Positions 54,882 through 63,897 of a stretch of 64,000 bases of DNA are shown here, in pieces (positions within the stretch are counted from its first letter, which is position 1; every line of letters begins with the position of its first letter). The DNA comes from a phage. Where the stretch lies: NCBI GenBank assembly GCA_012401045.1, contig GCA_012401045.1_4704.2, one strand, 5' to 3'. A program made the position numbers and the translations under genes. Under the pieces are notes generated by a model that had not been told where the DNA came from, did no database searches, and worked only from the letters and a program-made list of their open reading frames with translations.

Positions 54882-57494
54882 TTAAGCGTCCGGCGTAAAA
54901 TCAAAAGGAATGTCCGTACGAATGATACCATAACGTTTTCCGAGGAAATAAAACTCTTCGGGAACCTGACCGGGAATAATGCTATCACCGATGAACTGCG
55001 GATACGCCCAGATGTACTGAGTGAGTCCTTCGAACATATCCAGGTTATTTGCGTGGTTACCCATGATACGTTTCCAGAGTTCGCGTTTATACGGCGTTTT
55101 AACATCGAAACCATAAAGCGGTGCAAGATCTTCACCAGGAACAAATCCCAGGTAATAGTGAATCTGACTAACCGGGAAACCAAGCGTATCTCGCGGAATG
55201 GTGATCGCTTGCTCAGCTTTGGTGACATGCGTTTCAATAATCCAGTCGTAACACTCTGAATAGAACCGATCGAATTTCTCTGGATTATACCATGCTTTGG
55301 GAAGATTCAGTTTCTCCGTGAACGCATTCGACATGATCGTCGGTAAGAACGGAAGAACACCGGTTTTGATCTGCGTGTATTTCGATTTTACCCGGTTAAC
55401 CAAATTCCAGCAACTGTATCCTAACTGTTCGTTACAAAACTCAACGTAGAGATCGTAATCACCGCCGGATAATGGGTTGTTGATATCACCAATGTCTGCA
55501 GCGTATTTGTTGGGATATCGGTTATTGAAAGCCAGTTTGGTTTGGTAATCGTAGATACACGGTTTGTTGTTCGCTGTATTGATCCACCACCAGGGTTCAC
55601 CCACCTGTACACAAATGTCCTGGACATGAGGGTAAATAATATCGGCAAACGCGGTTAACACATCCCCTAACCACGCCATCGCCTGTTGGTTACATGGAGA
55701 CAGCAACCAGGACGGTGGTGTATATCCGGTTGCTGCGATGTTTCCTTCCCAATCCTGCTGCGCCCACTCGAACGGGCAGGCTGTACTCATCAATTCGTAA
55801 CTTAAACTGATGGTGACAGAGAAATGGTGTTTTGCAGCATATGCGGCGAAAGCTTCATGCCACGCGATACAGGGTGGATTTAATACATCCGTGGTGTTCA
55901 CCAGTAACTTACCCGCACTTGGCGTCCAGACAGTATCGTAGAAATGCGACATTCCAACATAATGCACTAATTCATCTTGATACCCCGCATAAACCAGGTT
56001 CTCAAATACACGCTCTGGCGTGATGTTGTAATGGTCATCGTAAGCGGTTATCGCACGAAGTTCGTGTGGTGTACAGTGGTGACGATTAACCGTCATTTCC
56101 TGATACACCCCATCGATAGGAAGAATCTCGAGGGTTAAACCGAGGTCGATTGGCGTTTCCAGATAGGTCGTTTCAGTCGCACCTTCCTTATAATGTCGAG
56201 AACTCATGCTGAACATCAACGATGCTACCGATTCGAGTTCGATAGGTTCGTCAGCATAGAACCCCGCCATTGCGTCATTGAAATCGATCGTTACGATTGC
56301 GCTTCTACCGTCTTCAGAGACATCGGTGGCGTATCGGGTTAATGAGATATACTGACGGCTATCGTCTTTGTGTACGACGGTTAAAACCGGCGGGTTTTCG
56401 GTATCTGCAAAGTTACGCTGATCGCCAGTAAACGTGATCTTCGCTTTAAAGATCAAACCGAATAACGACGTCATGGGATCATACGCAATACAACCGTGAT
56501 CCAGCGTATCCGTTGTCCGCCATTCTATCCCGACCAACCCGTTAGCGGTATGGCATCGCATATACGCATTAAGGACCATGTCTTCACTGACAACCGCGAA
56601 GTTCTCTGTTGACTGACCGTTGATAATCCAATACATCGGTTGCCAGAGGTTACGCGTACCTTTTGCGTAGCGGTAGGTTGGTGCGCCTTTAGGGTTGCCG
56701 TTATTGAGATGGAATACGGCAGTACCTTGATAATGGTCGTTCGTATTAATCGGAACACTGTAAGCGTCACCGAGGTCCGTACGTTCCACCTTCGTGACCG
56801 TTGCGTTTTCAAATAACCCACGCAACGCTGGTAAACCGATATCTTCAGGCGCGTTTTCTCGACGAATCGCATCCGCGATGCGATGGGCTAAGGCGGGGTA
56901 AATAGCTTCACCCTGTTGTAGGTTTGCAAGACCTACAAAGCGATCAGGGTCGATACCAGCAATCAATAACTCAACATCACCCTTCGTTCTATCGTCGTTA
57001 AGATATTTCAGTCCGGTAAGGTCAAGATGCTGAATAAGCGACAACAGGTTGTATTTACGGTTTTCAACAGTTAGTACAAGATCGCCTGCCCAAACCAAAC
57101 TTCCCTCATCCGCTGTTACTTTAACGGATTGTCGGCCTGTGGTAGACGTTGTTGTCGTTTTATTTAATTGTCCTTGTAGGAAGTCGGTTGCGAGGTCAAA
57201 GGCAATACCGTAACGGTCAGCGACCGCTTGCATGATTTCACGTAACTGGGTATCTTCTTCAATGATAATCTTGACAGGTATTCCCAAGAACGCTTTAGCA
57301 AGGTCTCGTTTAACCAACGAGACGAATACGGATTTGTAGTATCGGCTTCCATCTTTCCCTTTAAAAAGAATGGAGGTTGTTTCGGGTGCCGATAGAACAC
57401 GTGCAAATACAACATCGTCGGAAGTAAGAGAAAGTCCGTTTTTCTCGTTGACCAATCTTAGTATTTCATTTTGCGCGGTTTCATGTAACTTCAT
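54882..57494 (-). CDS. putative tailspike/receptor-binding protein (870 aa) with N-terminal anchor domain
   Basis: N-terminal ~170 aa homologous to 63370..63897 (RDLAKAFLGIPVKII block); Trp-rich C-terminal region (GEPWWW); lies in tail fibre module. Confidence 0.55.
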   Translation of the reverse strand: MKLHETAQNEILRLVNEKNGLSLTSDDVVFARVLSAPETTSILFKGKDGSRYYKSVFVSLVKRDLAKAFLGIPVKIIIEEDTQLREIMQAVADRYGIAFDLATDFLQGQLNKTTTTSTTGRQSVKVTADEGSLVWAGDLVLTVENRKYNLLSLIQHLDLTGLKYLNDDRTKGDVELLIAGIDPDRFVGLANLQQGEAIYPALAHRIADAIRRENAPEDIGLPALRGLFENATVTKVERTDLGDAYSVPINTNDHYQGTAVFHLNNGNPKGAPTYRYAKGTRNLWQPMYWIINGQSTENFAVVSEDMVLNAYMRCHTANGLVGIEWRTTDTLDHGCIAYDPMTSLFGLIFKAKITFTGDQRNFADTENPPVLTVVHKDDSRQYISLTRYATDVSEDGRSAIVTIDFNDAMAGFYADEPIELESVASLMFSMSSRHYKEGATETTYLETPIDLGLTLEILPIDGVYQEMTVNRHHCTPHELRAITAYDDHYNITPERVFENLVYAGYQDELVHYVGMSHFYDTVWTPSAGKLLVNTTDVLNPPCIAWHEAFAAYAAKHHFSVTISLSYELMSTACPFEWAQQDWEGNIAATGYTPPSWLLSPCNQQAMAWLGDVLTAFADIIYPHVQDICVQVGEPWWWINTANNKPCIYDYQTKLAFNNRYPNKYAADIGDINNPLSGGDYDLYVEFCNEQLGYSCWNLVNRVKSKYTQIKTGVLPFLPTIMSNAFTEKLNLPKAWYNPEKFDRFYSECYDWIIETHVTKAEQAITIPRDTLGFPVSQIHYYLGFVPGEDLAPLYGFDVKTPYKRELWKRIMGNHANNLDMFEGLTQYIWAYPQFIGDSIIPGQVPEEFYFLGKRYGIIRTDIPFDFTPDA

Positions 57495-58260: not shown

Positions 58261-58917
58261 TTAAATTGAATTTAGATATCGCTTACCACCAACAAACGAC
58301 GTCAACCAGTTCCCTGAAACAAGCTGCGAAGCCCAGCCAGGCACTGCCCTACCGTTCTGACTCATCACGTTACCTGCCCATCCCGGAAAACCTGGTACCA
58401 TTTCGTATATATTGAACGATTCTATCTGGAACGAACCAAGCTTAACGTAGTGCGTTGTTGATCGGTACTTAAATTCAATAATAACAAAGAACGGATGTGA
58501 TTGTAAGTCGGACATTCTAATAGGTGCCGAGAGATTACCCGCCGACCATGGTTTCCACGTATGCTTACGGCTATCACAGTCAATATTACCCATTGAACCG
58601 TTAGCTGACGCGTTCCAGAATAGCTTATAGTCATACGCGGCGACATCGCCACTCCATCCTTGGAGAGGTATATTTGGTACATATACCCCGTTATTCCATT
58701 GTCCGTGTTGAATTTCTTCAGCATCGCCATGCCCAGAGACATATTCTAAGTACGCGTTTGGGTGTCTAGCGACGACTTCTCGCGCAAAAGAACGCAAGTC
58801 AAAAAGATGGGCGACAATGCTGTTATTATAAGCCACTCTCCAGCCGGGATCACGCCACCCTAATTTGCCGTCAGCGTGCCTTCTAGACGTGAACCCTATA
58901 GTTCGCGCTATTGCCAT
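58261..58917 (-). CDS. hypothetical protein (~218 aa), paralog of 57517..58158
   Basis: Track ORF extends to 58968 inside a hairpin; internal ATG (codon 18) has GAGG RBS and aligns with the paralog N-terminus (MAI...). Confidence 0.6.
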   Translation of the reverse strand: MAIARTIGFTSRRHADGKLGWRDPGWRVAYNNSIVAHLFDLRSFAREVVARHPNAYLEYVSGHGDAEEIQHGQWNNGVYVPNIPLQGWSGDVAAYDYKLFWNASANGSMGNIDCDSRKHTWKPWSAGNLSAPIRMSDLQSHPFFVIIEFKYRSTTHYVKLGSFQIESFNIYEMVPGFPGWAGNVMSQNGRAVPGWASQLVSGNWLTSFVGGKRYLNSI

Positions 58918-58963
58918 TTTATACCTCGTTCCTATTCTCAAAAAGGAAATTTCATACGATGAC

Positions 58964-59006
58964 GCCATAGCAGCTCCTCCAACCCGTCAGGGAAGGAGGA
59001 GCATAC
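58964..59006 (-). terminator. hairpin (GCTCCTCC aacccgtcaggg AAGGAGGAGC) downstream of lipoprotein gene
   Basis: Loop sequence identical or near-identical to other family members. Confidence 0.55.
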
Positions 59007-59565: not shown

Positions 59566-62500
59566 TTACTTTTTGAGCGCTTTAAGTTCTTCTTCCATCG
59601 CTTCCACTTTTGCCGTAAGCTTCTGTACTTGTTTGATTAATGGAACCACCAAACGTTCGTACATAACACCTTCGGCGACGAGTCCGTTAGAAGAAACGAT
59701 AGCGGGGTCATCTTCTTCGGTTGCATCACGCCAATGCACGTATTGTGGTGCGATCTCACCAACCTCTTCGGCAATCAACCCATACCAACCCCAATCCTTG
59801 TTGTCGGCTTCGCAGGTAGAACGATACCAGACAGGACGCATCTCCAATACTTTATCCGCTTGTTCATCCGTGATATTCTCGATATCTTTCTTATAGCGCC
59901 GCGACGACGTTGAACGAAACACATTGTTGATCCCAGCAGTAGGACTGATATACATATTAGCCCCGCTGGTTGTAGTGCTAATGTCCCATACCGCAAATCC
60001 GCCGTTACTCCCATTTCTCACGACCAACGTATTGGCAATAATATCCAGGTTATTGTTGTAACCGGTTAACTGGTTTTCGGTGACAAAATCGGATAAGTTA
60101 ACGGAGTAGTTCTTGCTGTTATAACAACGACGCCATCCTGGGCTGTTGGTGCTGCCATTATAGTTGTCGTAGCTATAAATGAACTCGGAGTTGGTTTTCG
60201 CACCACTGACGGAAGACGTGGTTGCGGTGGTAACACGGATAGTGTAGTTCGTCATCCCGAAGCTAACGACCTCGATAACCGCACCAGCCAGAGGAATAAT
60301 ACCACATTTGGTTTCACTGTCTGGGATGTATGCGCTATCGGCAGCAGCGAAGGAGCAACGTGCGACCCAGGCACGGGTATTGAATGCACCTTGGTTCTGT
60401 AATAACGTAATAAACGATGAGGTCGTAATCGAGCTGTTATTATCACCTGTGATCAACCAGCCGGTTGGACATGCGGTAGCACCAACGTTTTTCGCTGTTA
60501 GCGTGATGTTCTTCGATCCGTCGAAGGCTACGCCGCTGATGGTACGTGCAGTCTGTAGCTTCGTCGCCGTTGCCGCGTTCCCTGATGTGTTCTGGTTCCC
60601 TGCCGCATTAACACCAGGCAGATTGATGTTCGCACTACCGTCGAAAGACACCCCGCCAATGGTGCGGGCTGTTTTCAGTTTTGTCGCCGTGGCGGCATTA
60701 CCGGTTGTGTCTTGGTTACCGGTGGTGTTTACCCCAGGTAGATTGATATTTGCCGTTCCGTTAAATGAAACGCCGCCAATCGTCCTTGCCGTTTGCAACT
60801 TCGTTGCAGATGCCGCATTCCCCGTGGTGTTTTGGTTGCCTGTTGTATTCACACCCGGGATACTATCCTTAGATGTGTAGATCTGTGCCCATTCCGACCA
60901 TTTCGCATCGGTTGAATCACGACGTGAACGTAGGTAAGCTGGAGCGTGTGCACCCGAGGTACCTGACCATCCAATGAGGATTTCACCTTCGCCGACCGAT
61001 GAAGCGCCTTTAAGATGAACAACGTTACCGTAGGCTGTAGGGTATCCGTTATTGTACGCTTCATACATCTGGATACCCGTATTGCTGCCCTGGGTCGCAT
61101 TAGCTAAAGCGGTGACCCGTCCCTTGGAAGCGAGCACGTTAATGCTAAAGCTAATATCGGTTGTACCGTCAAAGGCGACCCCATTAATCCTCCGCGCTGT
61201 TTGGAGTTTCGTGGCAGTAGCCGCATTACCAGAGGTACTCTGATTGCCTGCTTTGTTCACACCTGGTAAATCAATGTTGGCGGTTCCATCAAAGGACACG
61301 CCCCCTATGGTTCTCGCCGTCTGAAGTTTTGTTGCTGAACCAGCGTTTCCGGAAGTGCTTTGATTACCCGCCGCGTTGACACCTGGTAGGTTAATGCTAG
61401 CAGAACCATCAAAAGAAACTCCACCGATCGTAATAGCTGTTCGCAACTTCGTGGCTGTCGCAGCGTTACCCGTCGTATTCTGATTACCAGCTGCATTGAC
61501 GCCAGGTAATGCGATATCAGCTGTGCCATCGAACGCGACACCTCCGATTTTACGGGCGGTTTGTAGCTTGGTTGCTGTAGCAGCATTACCGCTGGTATTT
61601 TGCGTACCGGCTTTATTTACACCAGGAAGATCGATGTTAGCAGAACCATCGAAGCTGACGCCACCTATCGTTCTTGCAGTAGCAAGTTTAGCGGCTGTAG
61701 CAGCGACGTTACCGACTTTTAACCATTCTCCCCATGGACCATCCACACCGTTCCATGATGCCGTTAAACTGCGCACGTATATGTTTCCTGTACGTACTGT
61801 GTAACGTTGTGTTCCACCGAATTGACCGGCTGGGAGCACTTCGATGTAACCTACAGCATTTGCTTCAGGGAAATTGTGGGCAGCATCGGCATTCGTTGAT
61901 GTTTGTTTGGACCAAATACCCACAGACGCTTCAACCGGACCGTAGGTATCCAGATTTGCATCGGTGGGGAGCTGTCCTCGAAAACGTCGGAATAATGAAG
62001 CCGATAACCCCAACGTTGTTTGCATCCCTTCAATGCTTGACTGCGATAGAAGCGCCCGAGCTGTCGACGTGATGGCCGCTAAAGCAACCTTATCCGTACC
62101 GGTAAAAAACGGGAATTTGTTTGCTGATGTTGCTAAACCTGAAAGGGCGGTCAGTAATGCGTTAAGGGGTTGTTTCCCGGCTAGCGCGTTAGTCACAGTC
62201 GTTGCAAAGTTTGGATCATTACCTAACGCTTGAGCTAACTCGTTAAGCGTATTTAGCGCTTCTGGAGACGAGTCGATCAGCGACGCGATAGCACGCATCA
62301 CAAATTCCGTGTTGGCGATCTGTTGACTGCTATCGTTCTCTGCAGCCGTAGGTGCTGCTGGGATACCGGTGAACACAGGGTTATTAAGATCCGCCTTAAG
62401 GGCGATGAGACGTCTAAGTGCTTCAACATCGACTTTCAGGTTTTCCCATCCGACGAGATAACCATCACCGGTTGTGTGATAACGGTTGTACCAAAAATCG

Positions 62501-63363
62501 CCATTAACGCCAAAATAAAATATTCCCTTCTCTTCGTATTGTGGGCCAGAACTGTTCCGTGATGAGCTAATGTATTTTATTTCGATAAGGCCGTTGAATA
62601 CCACTCCTGGGATTATTTTGTTGTCTCCAGCTGACTGTGATACCTGGTAAATCCCCGGGGTTGCGGCTTTAACCCACGTTAAGAATTCTGTTACTCCAGC
62701 GGTACCGCTGAAATTCTTAACGTCGGTAAGTATTGCCCCATAACCGAACATACCGGGTAGAGCCACTCGTCCGCTGGTACGGTCACGAATATCTGTTGCA
62801 ACAACAGGTAATTGTTTACGAACGGCATTAACCGCTTTAGGTGTGGCCGATTTTGTCTCGTCGTCGCTATCGGTTTCATTACTTAGAATAGTTAAACCGC
62901 GTGTAGCAGTAGTTGCATCAGGAAGAAATGCGTTATCCAACACCTTAAGCTGTACTGCACTCGTATTACTAACAACGACATGCACTTGACAGTTAAGAAC
63001 GCTGGTTGCGCCTTCGGTAGGCGTAGGCTTATATCTTTCTGGTGCACTGCAGACGGCAATCAGAACACCTTGGTCATCGTACAGACCGATCTCACGTACC
63101 CAGAACCCACCTTGACCAGCAGGAATAATACCCTCAACGATAATCCTGGTTGTGCTATCACCATCCGCATGGATATTAGAAACTTCCCCACGATAAACTT
63201 CGTGAACAAGCGCTGTTTGGCTGGCGGTCGGGGTTGGGATCGAGCCGTTACCATCACCAACGGCAAAGTGTGTGATTTTTAGTTTCTCACCGTCGGGAAG
63301 TAACGCGGCGGTGATACGTTCTGCTCCTTTATCGGTAACTACCGTTATATATGCTGTACTCAT
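59566..63363 (-). CDS. tail fibre protein (1265 aa) with tandem ~40-aa fibre repeats and C-terminal S74-type intramolecular chaperone domain
   Basis: N-terminus resembles tail-fibre N-terminal domains (ITHFAVGDGNG...WVREIGLYD). At least eight repeats of NAATATKLQTARTIGGVSFDGSANINLPGVN. C-terminal SSRRYKKDIENI...WYGLIAEEV matches the S74 chaperone domain pattern. Confidence 0.8.
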   Translation of the reverse strand: MSTAYITVVTDKGAERITAALLPDGEKLKITHFAVGDGNGSIPTPTASQTALVHEVYRGEVSNIHADGDSTTRIIVEGIIPAGQGGFWVREIGLYDDQGVLIAVCSAPERYKPTPTEGATSVLNCQVHVVVSNTSAVQLKVLDNAFLPDATTATRGLTILSNETDSDDETKSATPKAVNAVRKQLPVVATDIRDRTSGRVALPGMFGYGAILTDVKNFSGTAGVTEFLTWVKAATPGIYQVSQSAGDNKIIPGVVFNGLIEIKYISSSRNSSGPQYEEKGIFYFGVNGDFWYNRYHTTGDGYLVGWENLKVDVEALRRLIALKADLNNPVFTGIPAAPTAAENDSSQQIANTEFVMRAIASLIDSSPEALNTLNELAQALGNDPNFATTVTNALAGKQPLNALLTALSGLATSANKFPFFTGTDKVALAAITSTARALLSQSSIEGMQTTLGLSASLFRRFRGQLPTDANLDTYGPVEASVGIWSKQTSTNADAAHNFPEANAVGYIEVLPAGQFGGTQRYTVRTGNIYVRSLTASWNGVDGPWGEWLKVGNVAATAAKLATARTIGGVSFDGSANIDLPGVNKAGTQNTSGNAATATKLQTARKIGGVAFDGTADIALPGVNAAGNQNTTGNAATATKLRTAITIGGVSFDGSASINLPGVNAAGNQSTSGNAGSATKLQTARTIGGVSFDGTANIDLPGVNKAGNQSTSGNAATATKLQTARRINGVAFDGTTDISFSINVLASKGRVTALANATQGSNTGIQMYEAYNNGYPTAYGNVVHLKGASSVGEGEILIGWSGTSGAHAPAYLRSRRDSTDAKWSEWAQIYTSKDSIPGVNTTGNQNTTGNAASATKLQTARTIGGVSFNGTANINLPGVNTTGNQDTTGNAATATKLKTARTIGGVSFDGSANINLPGVNAAGNQNTSGNAATATKLQTARTISGVAFDGSKNITLTAKNVGATACPTGWLITGDNNSSITTSSFITLLQNQGAFNTRAWVARCSFAAADSAYIPDSETKCGIIPLAGAVIEVVSFGMTNYTIRVTTATTSSVSGAKTNSEFIYSYDNYNGSTNSPGWRRCYNSKNYSVNLSDFVTENQLTGYNNNLDIIANTLVVRNGSNGGFAVWDISTTTSGANMYISPTAGINNVFRSTSSRRYKKDIENITDEQADKVLEMRPVWYRSTCEADNKDWGWYGLIAEEVGEIAPQYVHWRDATEEDDPAIVSSNGLVAEGVMYERLVVPLIKQVQKLTAKVEAMEEELKALKK
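60470..61700 (-). repeat. tandem ~120-bp repeats encoding the 40-aa tail-fibre repeats, in two blocks split by a non-repeat insert
   Basis: Antisense track ORFs 60308..60880, 61052..61243 and 61496..61804 show the mirrored periodic peptide pattern. Confidence 0.7.
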
Positions 63364-63369
63364 GGTGTT

Positions 63370-63897
63370 TTATCCTGGATAAATAGTGATGATATCACCA
63401 ATGACAGTTGTGGCACCGGCGTAAAGATGAGCCGGAGATACATCGTGTTGGTTTGTCACAGTAAGATCCAATCGACCACGCCAAACCATGGAGGTATTTG
63501 CGATGGGGATAGAAATCTTTTTGGATATATCGTCACGAAAATCAATAACAGTGGCAAGGGTAACCGCATCAAAGTCAACGTCGGGGTCAAAGACGAACCC
63601 GTATTGATCTGAAATCGCCCGAATAATCGCATGTATAGTTGTTGTCTCAACGGACTCTAAAACGATTTTTACCGGTATTCCTAAAAATGCCTTCGCGATA
63701 TCGCGTCGAGCGTAAACGATAAAACTTTCACCACACCACTTTGTTCCTTCATTTGCTGTGACGATCACTTTTGCCCTGTTAGCACCAGAACTCCCATCCA
63801 AGGTTAATGTAAGATCGGAGTTGCTGAACACGCTACTGTTACGTCTGTTTATCAACGACGTCAGTTCGTCTTTCCATGGCGGGTAAAGTGAACGCAT
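63370..63897 (-). CDS. fibre-anchor-domain protein (~175 aa), homolog of N-terminus of 54882..57494
   Basis: Track ORF starts at TTG (63918); ATG is codon 8 with GGAGGAGGG 11 nt upstream. RRDIAKAFLGIPVKIV block. Same frame as the downstream fibre gene, separated by TAA plus two codons. Confidence 0.6.
   Translation of the reverse strand: MRSLYPPWKDELTSLINRRNSSVFSNSDLTLTLDGSSGANRAKVIVTANEGTKWCGESFIVYARRDIAKAFLGIPVKIVLESVETTTIHAIIRAISDQYGFVFDPDVDFDAVTLATVIDFRDDISKKISIPIANTSMVWRGRLDLTVTNQHDVSPAHLYAGATTVIGDIITIYPG

Follow-up and report, generated by a model that had tools for sequence, protein, structure and literature searches.

A short DUF7941 gene separate from, and in frame with, a tail fibre gene in a Goslar-like jumbo phage

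Genes at the receptor-binding locus

The window analyzed here is a 64,000-nucleotide stretch of phage DNA (contig GCA_012401045.1_4704.2 of assembly GCA_012401045.1). Its source is a Goslar-like chimallivirus, a giant E. coli phage: the window is 97.4% identical to the jumbo phage Goslar, which was also the only match in a tblastn search of a phage collection. The locus of interest is a receptor-binding gene cluster that carries orthologues of Goslar gp091, gp090, and gp086 (Table 1). Gene order and the TAA-AACACC-ATG junction are identical in the two phages, while the window has an additional ORF of 235 aa that is missing from Goslar.

The smaller gene begins with an ATG at 63897, preceded by GGAGGA, and runs for 175 codons before its TAA. 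After two sense codons (AACACC), the fibre ATG at 63363 follows in the same frame, with a Shine-Dalgarno–like AGGA 9 nt upstream. An earlier note on this sequence had described the same layout, and all of its coordinates are confirmed on the minus strand. Around the junction, scans for promoters (7 found versus 6.7 expected) and terminators (7 found versus 5.3 expected) were at background. We conclude that these are two separate genes, which are probably translationally coupled.

The fibre is a complete protein of the P2 gpH/P1 gpS type, with its own N-terminal attachment domain. Its match to PF12571 covers profile positions 1-140 of 150, and the fibre Met1 coincides with profile position 1. 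The fibre also matches PF03406 (E=3.3e-8), and the annotation of Goslar gp090 notes a similarity to P1 gpS. The fibre domain probably forms a trimer, to judge from other phage tail fibres. The distal ends differ, however: the Goslar fibre has a P1 gpS-like tip and a separate assembly gene, gp089 (Caudo_TAP), whereas the window fibre ends in Peptidase_S74, with no assembly gene after it.

Table 1. Positions of the genes, domains, and junction elements at the locus.
Feature	Position in window	Strand	Description
Short-form DUF7941 protein, 175 aa	63370..63897	minus	Goslar gp091 orthologue, 97% identical; PF25613 57.4 bits
Globular N-terminal domain, aa 1-150	63448..63897	minus	AF2 pLDDT 80-93; fold of phiKZ gp127 N-terminal domain
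Conserved block RRDIAKAFLGIPVKIV, aa 64-79	63661..63708	minus	Common to 870-aa paralogue; crossover site in relatives
C-terminal tail, aa 151-175, ...LYAGATTVIGDIITIYPG	63373..63447	minus	Disordered in AF2 monomer model, pLDDT 44-52
Junction	63364..63376	minus	AGGA 63376..63373, TAA 63372..63370, spacer AACACC 63369..63364
Tail fibre, 1265 aa	59566..63363	minus	Goslar gp090 orthologue over ~960 aa; distal tip different
Fibre N-terminal domain PF12571 (phage tail-collar fibre N-terminal), aa 1-141	62941..63363	minus	E=1.4e-41
Peptidase_S74 intramolecular chaperone domain, aa 1153-1209	59737..59907	minus	E=3.4e-8
Additional ORF, 235 aa	58261..58968		Missing from Goslar
Long-form DUF7941 protein, 870 aa	54882..57494	minus	Goslar gp086 orthologue

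The short protein, its fold, and its paralogues

The 175-aa protein belongs to the Pfam family DUF7941 (PF25613), scoring well above the cut-off of 27 bits. The match spans profile positions 7-154 of 276, and the C-terminal globular domain is missing. The protein is thus a DUF7941 short form, comprising an N-terminal domain and a linker. This is a common format: 45 of the best 150 DUF7941 family representatives are no longer than 200 aa. One distant short-form representative, P0048, sits on a 913-bp contig without usable context. The small gene product has 35 homologues (60-99% identity). Each stands alone rather than as part of a longer fusion protein, and those that are full-length measure 175-176 aa. 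Family architectures were taken from an exhaustive HMM search, as a word-indexed profile search gave close relatives only and no architectures.

Querying the PDB with the 175-aa sequence returned no meaningful match, and a 13-sequence profile search gave only a weak match, to phiKZ gp127 (PHIKZ127; E=0.21). A fold comparison was therefore needed to confirm this relationship. Searching the PDB with the AF2 model using Foldseek produced a single significant match, which was the N-terminal domain of phiKZ gp127 (9xqd_0; E=2e-7; TM 0.58/0.66). The tail that follows the globular domain can be aligned to the linker motif seen in the Goslar long forms gp22, gp31, gp33, and gp34, although the aligned segments are short and divergent. 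Its IYPG terminus is kept in all relatives compared.

It had been proposed from the sequence that the 175-aa protein is homologous to the N-terminal ~170 aa of the 870-aa protein, where this anchor is fused to a distal domain. Pairwise alignment of the two anchor regions does show significant similarity (BLASTP, 30% identity over 142 aa, E=1e-20), pairing the short product with residues 8-146 of the long one and including RRDIAKAFLGIPVKIV versus KRDLAKAFLGIPVKII. The homologous stretch is shorter than proposed, at ~146 residues, and the last 25 residues of the short protein are its tail. The fusion within the 870-aa protein is likewise borne out. It has a full DUF7941 at aa 2-277 (PF25613, 153.4 bits versus the cut-off of 27), beyond which lie NCTSP_N and TIM-barrel_NCTSP domains resembling N4 gp65/gp64 (PF23845, E=3.4e-85; PF23844, E=1.3e-10). 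In the PDB, it matches Gp64 (9lc0, E=4.5e-30).

Distal partners of DUF7941 seen in the family include N4 sheath-like TIM barrels, DUF285, LRR, GP38 adhesin, and propellers. This agrees with the earlier suggestion that receptor-binding domains are swapped on a common attachment domain, although that idea is already published, and the shared DUF7941 module has been described in the literature. We also find direct evidence in relatives of recombination between paralogous DUF7941 domains, with the crossover in the conserved RRDIAKAF..GIP block, the same shared block that the note had flagged. This recombination, a new but minor finding, deletes or re-pairs genes.

The junction among relatives

We compared the junction at 17 relatives' loci drawn from public records and metagenome assemblies. 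The stop codon is TAA in the window and at all 17 loci, and sequencing error at the stop is thus ruled out. The spacer, in contrast, varies in length: 6 nt (frame 0), 8 nt (frame +2) in L002-L004, where the fibre is present, and 7 nt (frame +1) in L008 and L013. This 7-nt junction is also found in L017, where a mutation has turned the start codon into ACG. All three frames are therefore found among relatives, and the in-frame relation seen in the window is not conserved. Given this, and a prior expectation of one in three, the shared frame is no better than chance; it is a coincidence of the 6-nt spacer.

The small gene is under purifying selection (dN/dS 0.06-0.44), with dS saturated relative to the most distant (L002) clade. 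It remains intact in three lineages that have lost the fibre gene from the locus (L008, L013, and L017). Wherever the fibre gene occurs in a relative, the small gene lies directly 5' of it, with a gap of 6-8 nt. Every relative shows the split arrangement, even those of a clade with 64% protein identity and saturated dS.

Role of the short protein and comparison with known systems

Goslar gp091 is one of ten DUF7941 proteins, a family specific to Chimalliviridae (Basu et al. 2026, bioRxiv 10.64898/2026.04.21.720040). Filaments of gp22 have been seen by negative stain, and head-to-tail contacts come from AlphaFold predictions; oligomerisation has been demonstrated for gp22 only (10.64898/2026.04.21.720040). 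In Goslar virions, mass spectrometry detected gp091 by 2 peptides, corresponding to ~1.2 copies, a label-free estimate that is imprecise (10.64898/2026.04.21.720040).

The explanation that we favor, and consider likely, is that the 175-aa protein is a short DUF7941 module whose gene is separate from that of the complete fibre, that their in-frame arrangement is coincidental, and that the protein is a minor subunit or connector of the DUF7941 network. The upstream gene supplies a DUF7941 N-terminal domain and a linker tail, in the same format as Goslar gp23. DUF7941 proteins in Goslar are proposed to form head-to-tail chains in which each linker docks on the N-terminal domain of the following protein, giving baseplate-anchored filaments that bear receptor-binding domains. 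The 175-aa protein would most likely take a minor or connecting place among them, while the product of the downstream gene, a P1/P2-type fibre, would attach by its own N-terminal domain. A docking role for the tail is suggested by the short, divergent linker alignment together with the published AlphaFold predictions.

The numbers of the two products in Goslar virions, ~1.2 (0.8-1.9) copies of gp091 versus ~43 (29-68) of gp090, argue against a stoichiometric fibre-coupling role, and we infer that the 175-aa protein is not a stoichiometric anchor of the fibre. The label of “fibre anchor” used in the earlier note is also unproven. The tail looks less like an element for binding a fibre than like the linker by which DUF7941 proteins are predicted to bind one another, and the protein is ~36 times rarer than the fibre in Goslar virions.

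An alternative, which we regard as unlikely, is that the short protein is a dedicated adaptor. Its DUF7941 N-terminal domain would dock on the peripheral baseplate, or else on a chain of DUF7941 proteins, and its tail or surface would hold the horizontally acquired P1/P2-type fibre in trans by the N-terminal domain of the fibre. The close adjacency of the small gene to the fibre, kept across the clade, fits such an adaptor and hints at a functional link, one that is incidental in our favored explanation. The order of small DUF7941 gene followed by large tail protein gene also recurs, in Goslar gp093-gp092, Serratia phage PCH45, and Salmonella phage SPLA10 (PCH45 and SPLA10 were reached through more distant short-form representatives). 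Furthermore, phiKZ gp127 is proposed to bind gp126 (10.64898/2026.04.21.720040), with which it is numbered consecutively, and the attachment of gp090 to the baseplate is not resolved in Goslar cryoEM maps. However, an adaptor sits poorly with the rarity of gp091 and with the retention of the small gene where the fibre has been lost. The fibre, moreover, already has a complete N-terminal domain of its own, and the proposed partner of a DUF7941 linker, which the tail resembles, is another DUF7941 N-terminal domain. It is more doubtful still that short DUF7941 proteins are dedicated trans adaptors plugging captured P1/P2-type fibre cassettes into the chimallivirus docking network, with the RRDIAKAF..GIP block as a built-in recombination site that re-pairs anchors with new distal genes.

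The arrangement had also been read as a recent fission or fusion. In a recent fission, a nonsense mutation would have cut an ancestral DUF7941-fibre fusion into two ORFs that are still in frame. The two-codon, in-frame gap is what suggests this, and a true case of this kind exists nearby: in L017, a 584-aa DUF7941+DUF285 gene has an AAA to TAA change at codon 278, the exact end of DUF7941. For the gene pair studied here, however, a recent split is very improbable. All relatives are split, including the saturated-dS clade, and both spacer length and frame vary between clades. The fibre starts precisely where the PF12571 profile does, a scan of 16 long DUF7941 proteins revealed no DUF7941+PF12571 fusion, and the short form is a common and abundant format, as exemplified by gp23.

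Programmed readthrough, also raised in the earlier note, would give, as a minor product, a ~1442-aa gp091-gp090 fusion with a junction reading ...TIYPG-X-NTMSTAYITVVTDK; the window, Goslar, and most close relatives have both ORFs in the same frame, and gp091 peptides occur at a low level in virions, but we consider it extremely unlikely, as the stop is always UAA, the least leaky E. coli stop codon and one read by both RF1 and RF2, the L002-L004 clade keeps both genes in frame +2, no stable RNA structure lies 3' of the stop (fold z=-0.46), the fibre has initiation signals of its own, and there is no tRNA gene in the window. Goslar also encodes no tRNAs (PMC6563267).

The locus thus presents neither a recoding signal nor a fresh gene split. 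Rather, it exemplifies host-recognition variation in Goslar-group jumbo phages, where one DUF7941 docking module is combined with many distal domains. The reuse and recombination of this previously described module provide background for predicting or engineering chimallivirus host range.

Among known systems, Goslar itself has counterparts of both DUF7941 proteins discussed here: gp091, and gp086, the first 280 residues of which are ~99% identical to the 870-aa protein. Goslar gp23 (180 aa) has the same format as the 175-aa protein, with an N-terminal domain and linker but no C-terminal domain, and is still counted as a DUF7941 member (10.64898/2026.04.21.720040). Both gp23 and gp091 are virion-associated, although they are only 14% identical and differ greatly in abundance (~2140 versus ~1 copies per virion). 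The outer peripheral baseplate of phiKZ contains a gp139 band that “terminates at gp127” (PMC13250141). The gp127 protein (PDB 9XQD chain 0), at the end (tip) of this gp139 spoke, has the same N-terminal fold as the 175-aa protein but differs in being a 290-aa long form with a linker and C-terminal domain, at 13% identity.

Adaptor-based branched systems, such as those of G7C (gp66/gp63.1), CBA120 (TSP1-4), and K1-5, similarly have conserved N-terminal modules that let distal receptor-binding domains be exchanged. Their modules are unrelated in sequence and build a fixed branched hub, whereas DUF7941 modules are proposed to form head-to-tail polymers.

Two adjacent genes and a docking domain

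The locus consists of two neighbouring genes from a phage group that is already known, and a recently described docking module is encoded by one of them. The upstream gene and the tail fibre gene correspond to gp091 (175 aa) and gp090 of Escherichia phage vB_EcoM_Goslar, and a nearby 870-aa protein corresponds to gp086. As the earlier note stated, the first two share a reading frame, two sense codons apart. An AGGA 9 nt ahead of the fibre ATG falls within the 3' end of the 175-codon ORF. The homology also claimed between the small protein and the 870-aa protein is real (30% identity to residues 8-146 of the latter, E=1e-20, including an RD(I/L)AKAFLGIPVKI(V/I) block), although it extends over ~146 residues and not ~170.

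Coordinates of the features discussed, in the window and at relatives' loci (L numbers)
Feature	Coordinates	Strand	Remark
175-codon ORF, upstream gene	ATG 63897, TAA 63372..63370	minus	GGAGGA before ATG
1265-codon ORF, fibre	ATG 63363 to 59566	minus	opens after 6-base spacer AACACC
Fibre C-terminus	59566..60480	minus	tip
235-aa ORF	58261..58968	minus	between gp088 and gp087 homologues
870-aa protein	57494..54882	minus	gp086 orthologue
Chimeric gp091 gene	L005:5426-5956		orthologue of window 63370..63897
Chimeric gp091 gene	L008:3889-4419		orthologue of window 63370..63897
Chimeric gp091 gene	L013:2024-2554		orthologue of window 63370..63897
584-aa DUF7941+DUF285 gene	L017:1797-3548		TAA at codon 278

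The fibre has a complete PF12571 domain from residue 1 (E=1.4e-41), the N-terminal domain of P2 gpH / P1 gpS-type fibres. In the 870-aa protein, NCTSP_N and TIM-barrel_NCTSP come after a full DUF7941; these two are the domains of gp65/gp64, sheath and receptor-binding proteins of phage N4, and the 870-aa protein matches Gp64 in PDB 9lc0 (E=4.5e-30). That a jumbo myovirus protein joins DUF7941 to TIM-barrel and N-terminal domains as in podovirus N4 gp65/gp64 suggests that a host-recognition domain is shared across morphotypes.

The 175-aa protein matches DUF7941 (PF25613) at profile positions 7-154 of 276. Its AlphaFold2 model, built from an alignment of 22 sequences, is confident for residues 1-150 (pLDDT 80-93) and disordered for residues 151-175 (pLDDT 44-52). 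The sole significant Foldseek match of the model in the PDB is 9xqd_0, the phiKZ gp127 N-terminal domain (E=2e-7, probability 1.00, TM 0.58/0.66), which is located at the gp139 spoke end in the outer baseplate (PMC13250141). By this fold match, the modelled domain is a genuine module for docking at the baseplate. A bioRxiv preprint from April 2026 (10.64898/2026.04.21.720040) gives 9QXD as the entry for the phiKZ outer baseplate; in the copy of the PDB used for the search, PHIKZ127 is actually in 9XQD. The same preprint defines DUF7941 as a Chimalliviridae-specific family with ten Goslar members (gp22, 23, 31, 33, 34, 86, 91, 92, 93, and 161), predicts head-to-tail oligomers, reports gp22 filaments by negative stain, and proposes that DUF7941 filaments are anchored at the baseplate and bear carbohydrate-binding domains.

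The short form and the shared frame

Searched exhaustively with a profile (E<=0.001), 1.84 billion representatives yielded 351 DUF7941 family members. Among the best 150 of these, 45 representatives have <=200 aa, 37 have 201-330 aa, 49 have 331-700 aa, and 19 have >700 aa. DUF7941 is present in 15 of the 16 long members scanned and is N-terminal in each of these except P0165, in which residue 442 is its first; P0116 has a Spiralin domain only. Distal domains in these 16 include LRR_5, GP38 adhesin, DUF285, and BNR/propeller, and PF12571 is absent from all of them. With the short form this common, with the most abundant DUF7941 protein of Goslar, gp23 (10.64898/2026.04.21.720040), having 180 aa, and with the gp091 tail (...LYAGATTVIGDIITIYPG) aligning to the linker motif found in four long forms (gp22, gp31, gp33, and gp34), the 175-aa protein is of the standard format, an N-terminal domain with a linker, and is not the remnant of a split.

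All 35 homologues found (60-99% identity; full-length ones 175-176 aa) stand alone, none being fused to a longer protein. At the loci of 17 relatives, drawn from public records and metagenome assemblies, the small protein always ends in IYPG and its stop is always TAA. The spacer is 6 nt (frame 0) in the window, Goslar (L001, L006), L005, L007, L009-L012, and L014-L016; 8 nt (AATAAATT, frame +2) in L002-L004, which retain a 1268-aa fibre; and 7 nt (frame +1) in L008 and L013, a junction shared by L017, where the next start codon is mutated to ACG. The dN/dS of the small gene is 0.06-0.44, and dS is saturated relative to the L002 clade. No tRNA genes are encoded in the window or in Goslar (PMC6563267), and RNA folding downstream of the stop is no better than in shuffled sequence (z=-0.46). 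Stand-alone homologues, varying spacers, and saturated dS thus speak against the recent fission raised in the earlier note, and the invariant TAA, the spacer-dependent frame, and the lack of a tRNA or RNA fold speak against its alternative of stop-codon readthrough; neither is supported. There is no recoding at the junction, and the shared frame is a 1-in-3 outcome of a 6-nt spacer: an accurate observation with an ordinary meaning.

Exchange among paralogues and the link to the fibre

The more general suggestion of modular swapping stands. In L005, L008, and L013, the first ~200 nt of the gp091 gene come from the adjacent 584-aa or 277-aa paralogue (93-100% nucleotide identity to the closest paralogue over the first 180 nt) and the remainder from gp091 (90-100% identity). 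The switch point is the RRDIAKAF..GIP block, and the gene that lay between is lost. These chimeras are products of homologous recombination involving paralogous N-terminal domains. In L017, AAA to TAA at codon 278 of the 584-aa gene, exactly at the DUF7941 end, cuts the product down to a 277-aa DUF7941 protein, with the DUF285 part following in frame. This split, in another gene and in one metagenome assembly, may be a genuine fission, or it may mark a pseudogene or an error.

We consider it unlikely that gp091 is a dedicated adaptor anchoring the fibre. The small gene does lie immediately upstream of the fibre gene wherever the latter is present, and in Serratia phage PCH45 and Salmonella phage SPLA10, too, a small DUF7941 gene precedes the gene of a large tail protein. 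However, the fibre already has an N-terminal domain of its own, and the small gene is intact in three lineages (L008, L013, and L017) whose fibre gene is gone from the locus, its first codons (MSTSY) being joined straight to a Caudo_TAP assembly-protein gene. The ATG of that junction is ACG in L017, which suggests that its orphaned assembly gene is decaying. Furthermore, gp091 is ~36-fold rarer than gp090 in Goslar virions, at an estimated ~1.2 (0.8-1.9; 2 peptides) against ~43 (29-68; 35 peptides) copies per virion; estimates for gp092, gp093, and gp086 are ~4.9, ~4.8, and ~4.5 (Table S4, 10.64898/2026.04.21.720040). The attachment mode of the Goslar fibre is resolved in neither that preprint nor PMC13250141.

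Comparison with Goslar

Over the junction region, identity to Goslar, a nucleus-forming jumbo phage of 237 kb, is 97.4%, and the TAA-AACACC-ATG junction is the same. A third Goslar DUF7941 paralogue, gp093 (276 aa), immediately precedes gp092, a tail protein of 1198 aa, with a 13-nt gap and differing frames; this pair is located past the window's end. For the 235-aa ORF of the window, neither Pfam nor PHROG gives a match, and Goslar lacks a counterpart. Relatives have a 218- or 255-aa ORF in its slot, which is thus a variable position.

Fibres of the relatives have 1009, 1174, 1265, 1268, or 1324 aa. The window fibre matches gp090 across ~960 residues, but the tip is exchanged: the window has a self-chaperoning Peptidase_S74 intramolecular chaperone domain, whereas in Goslar the tip is P1 gpS-like and a separate gene, the Caudo_TAP gene gp089, comes after it.
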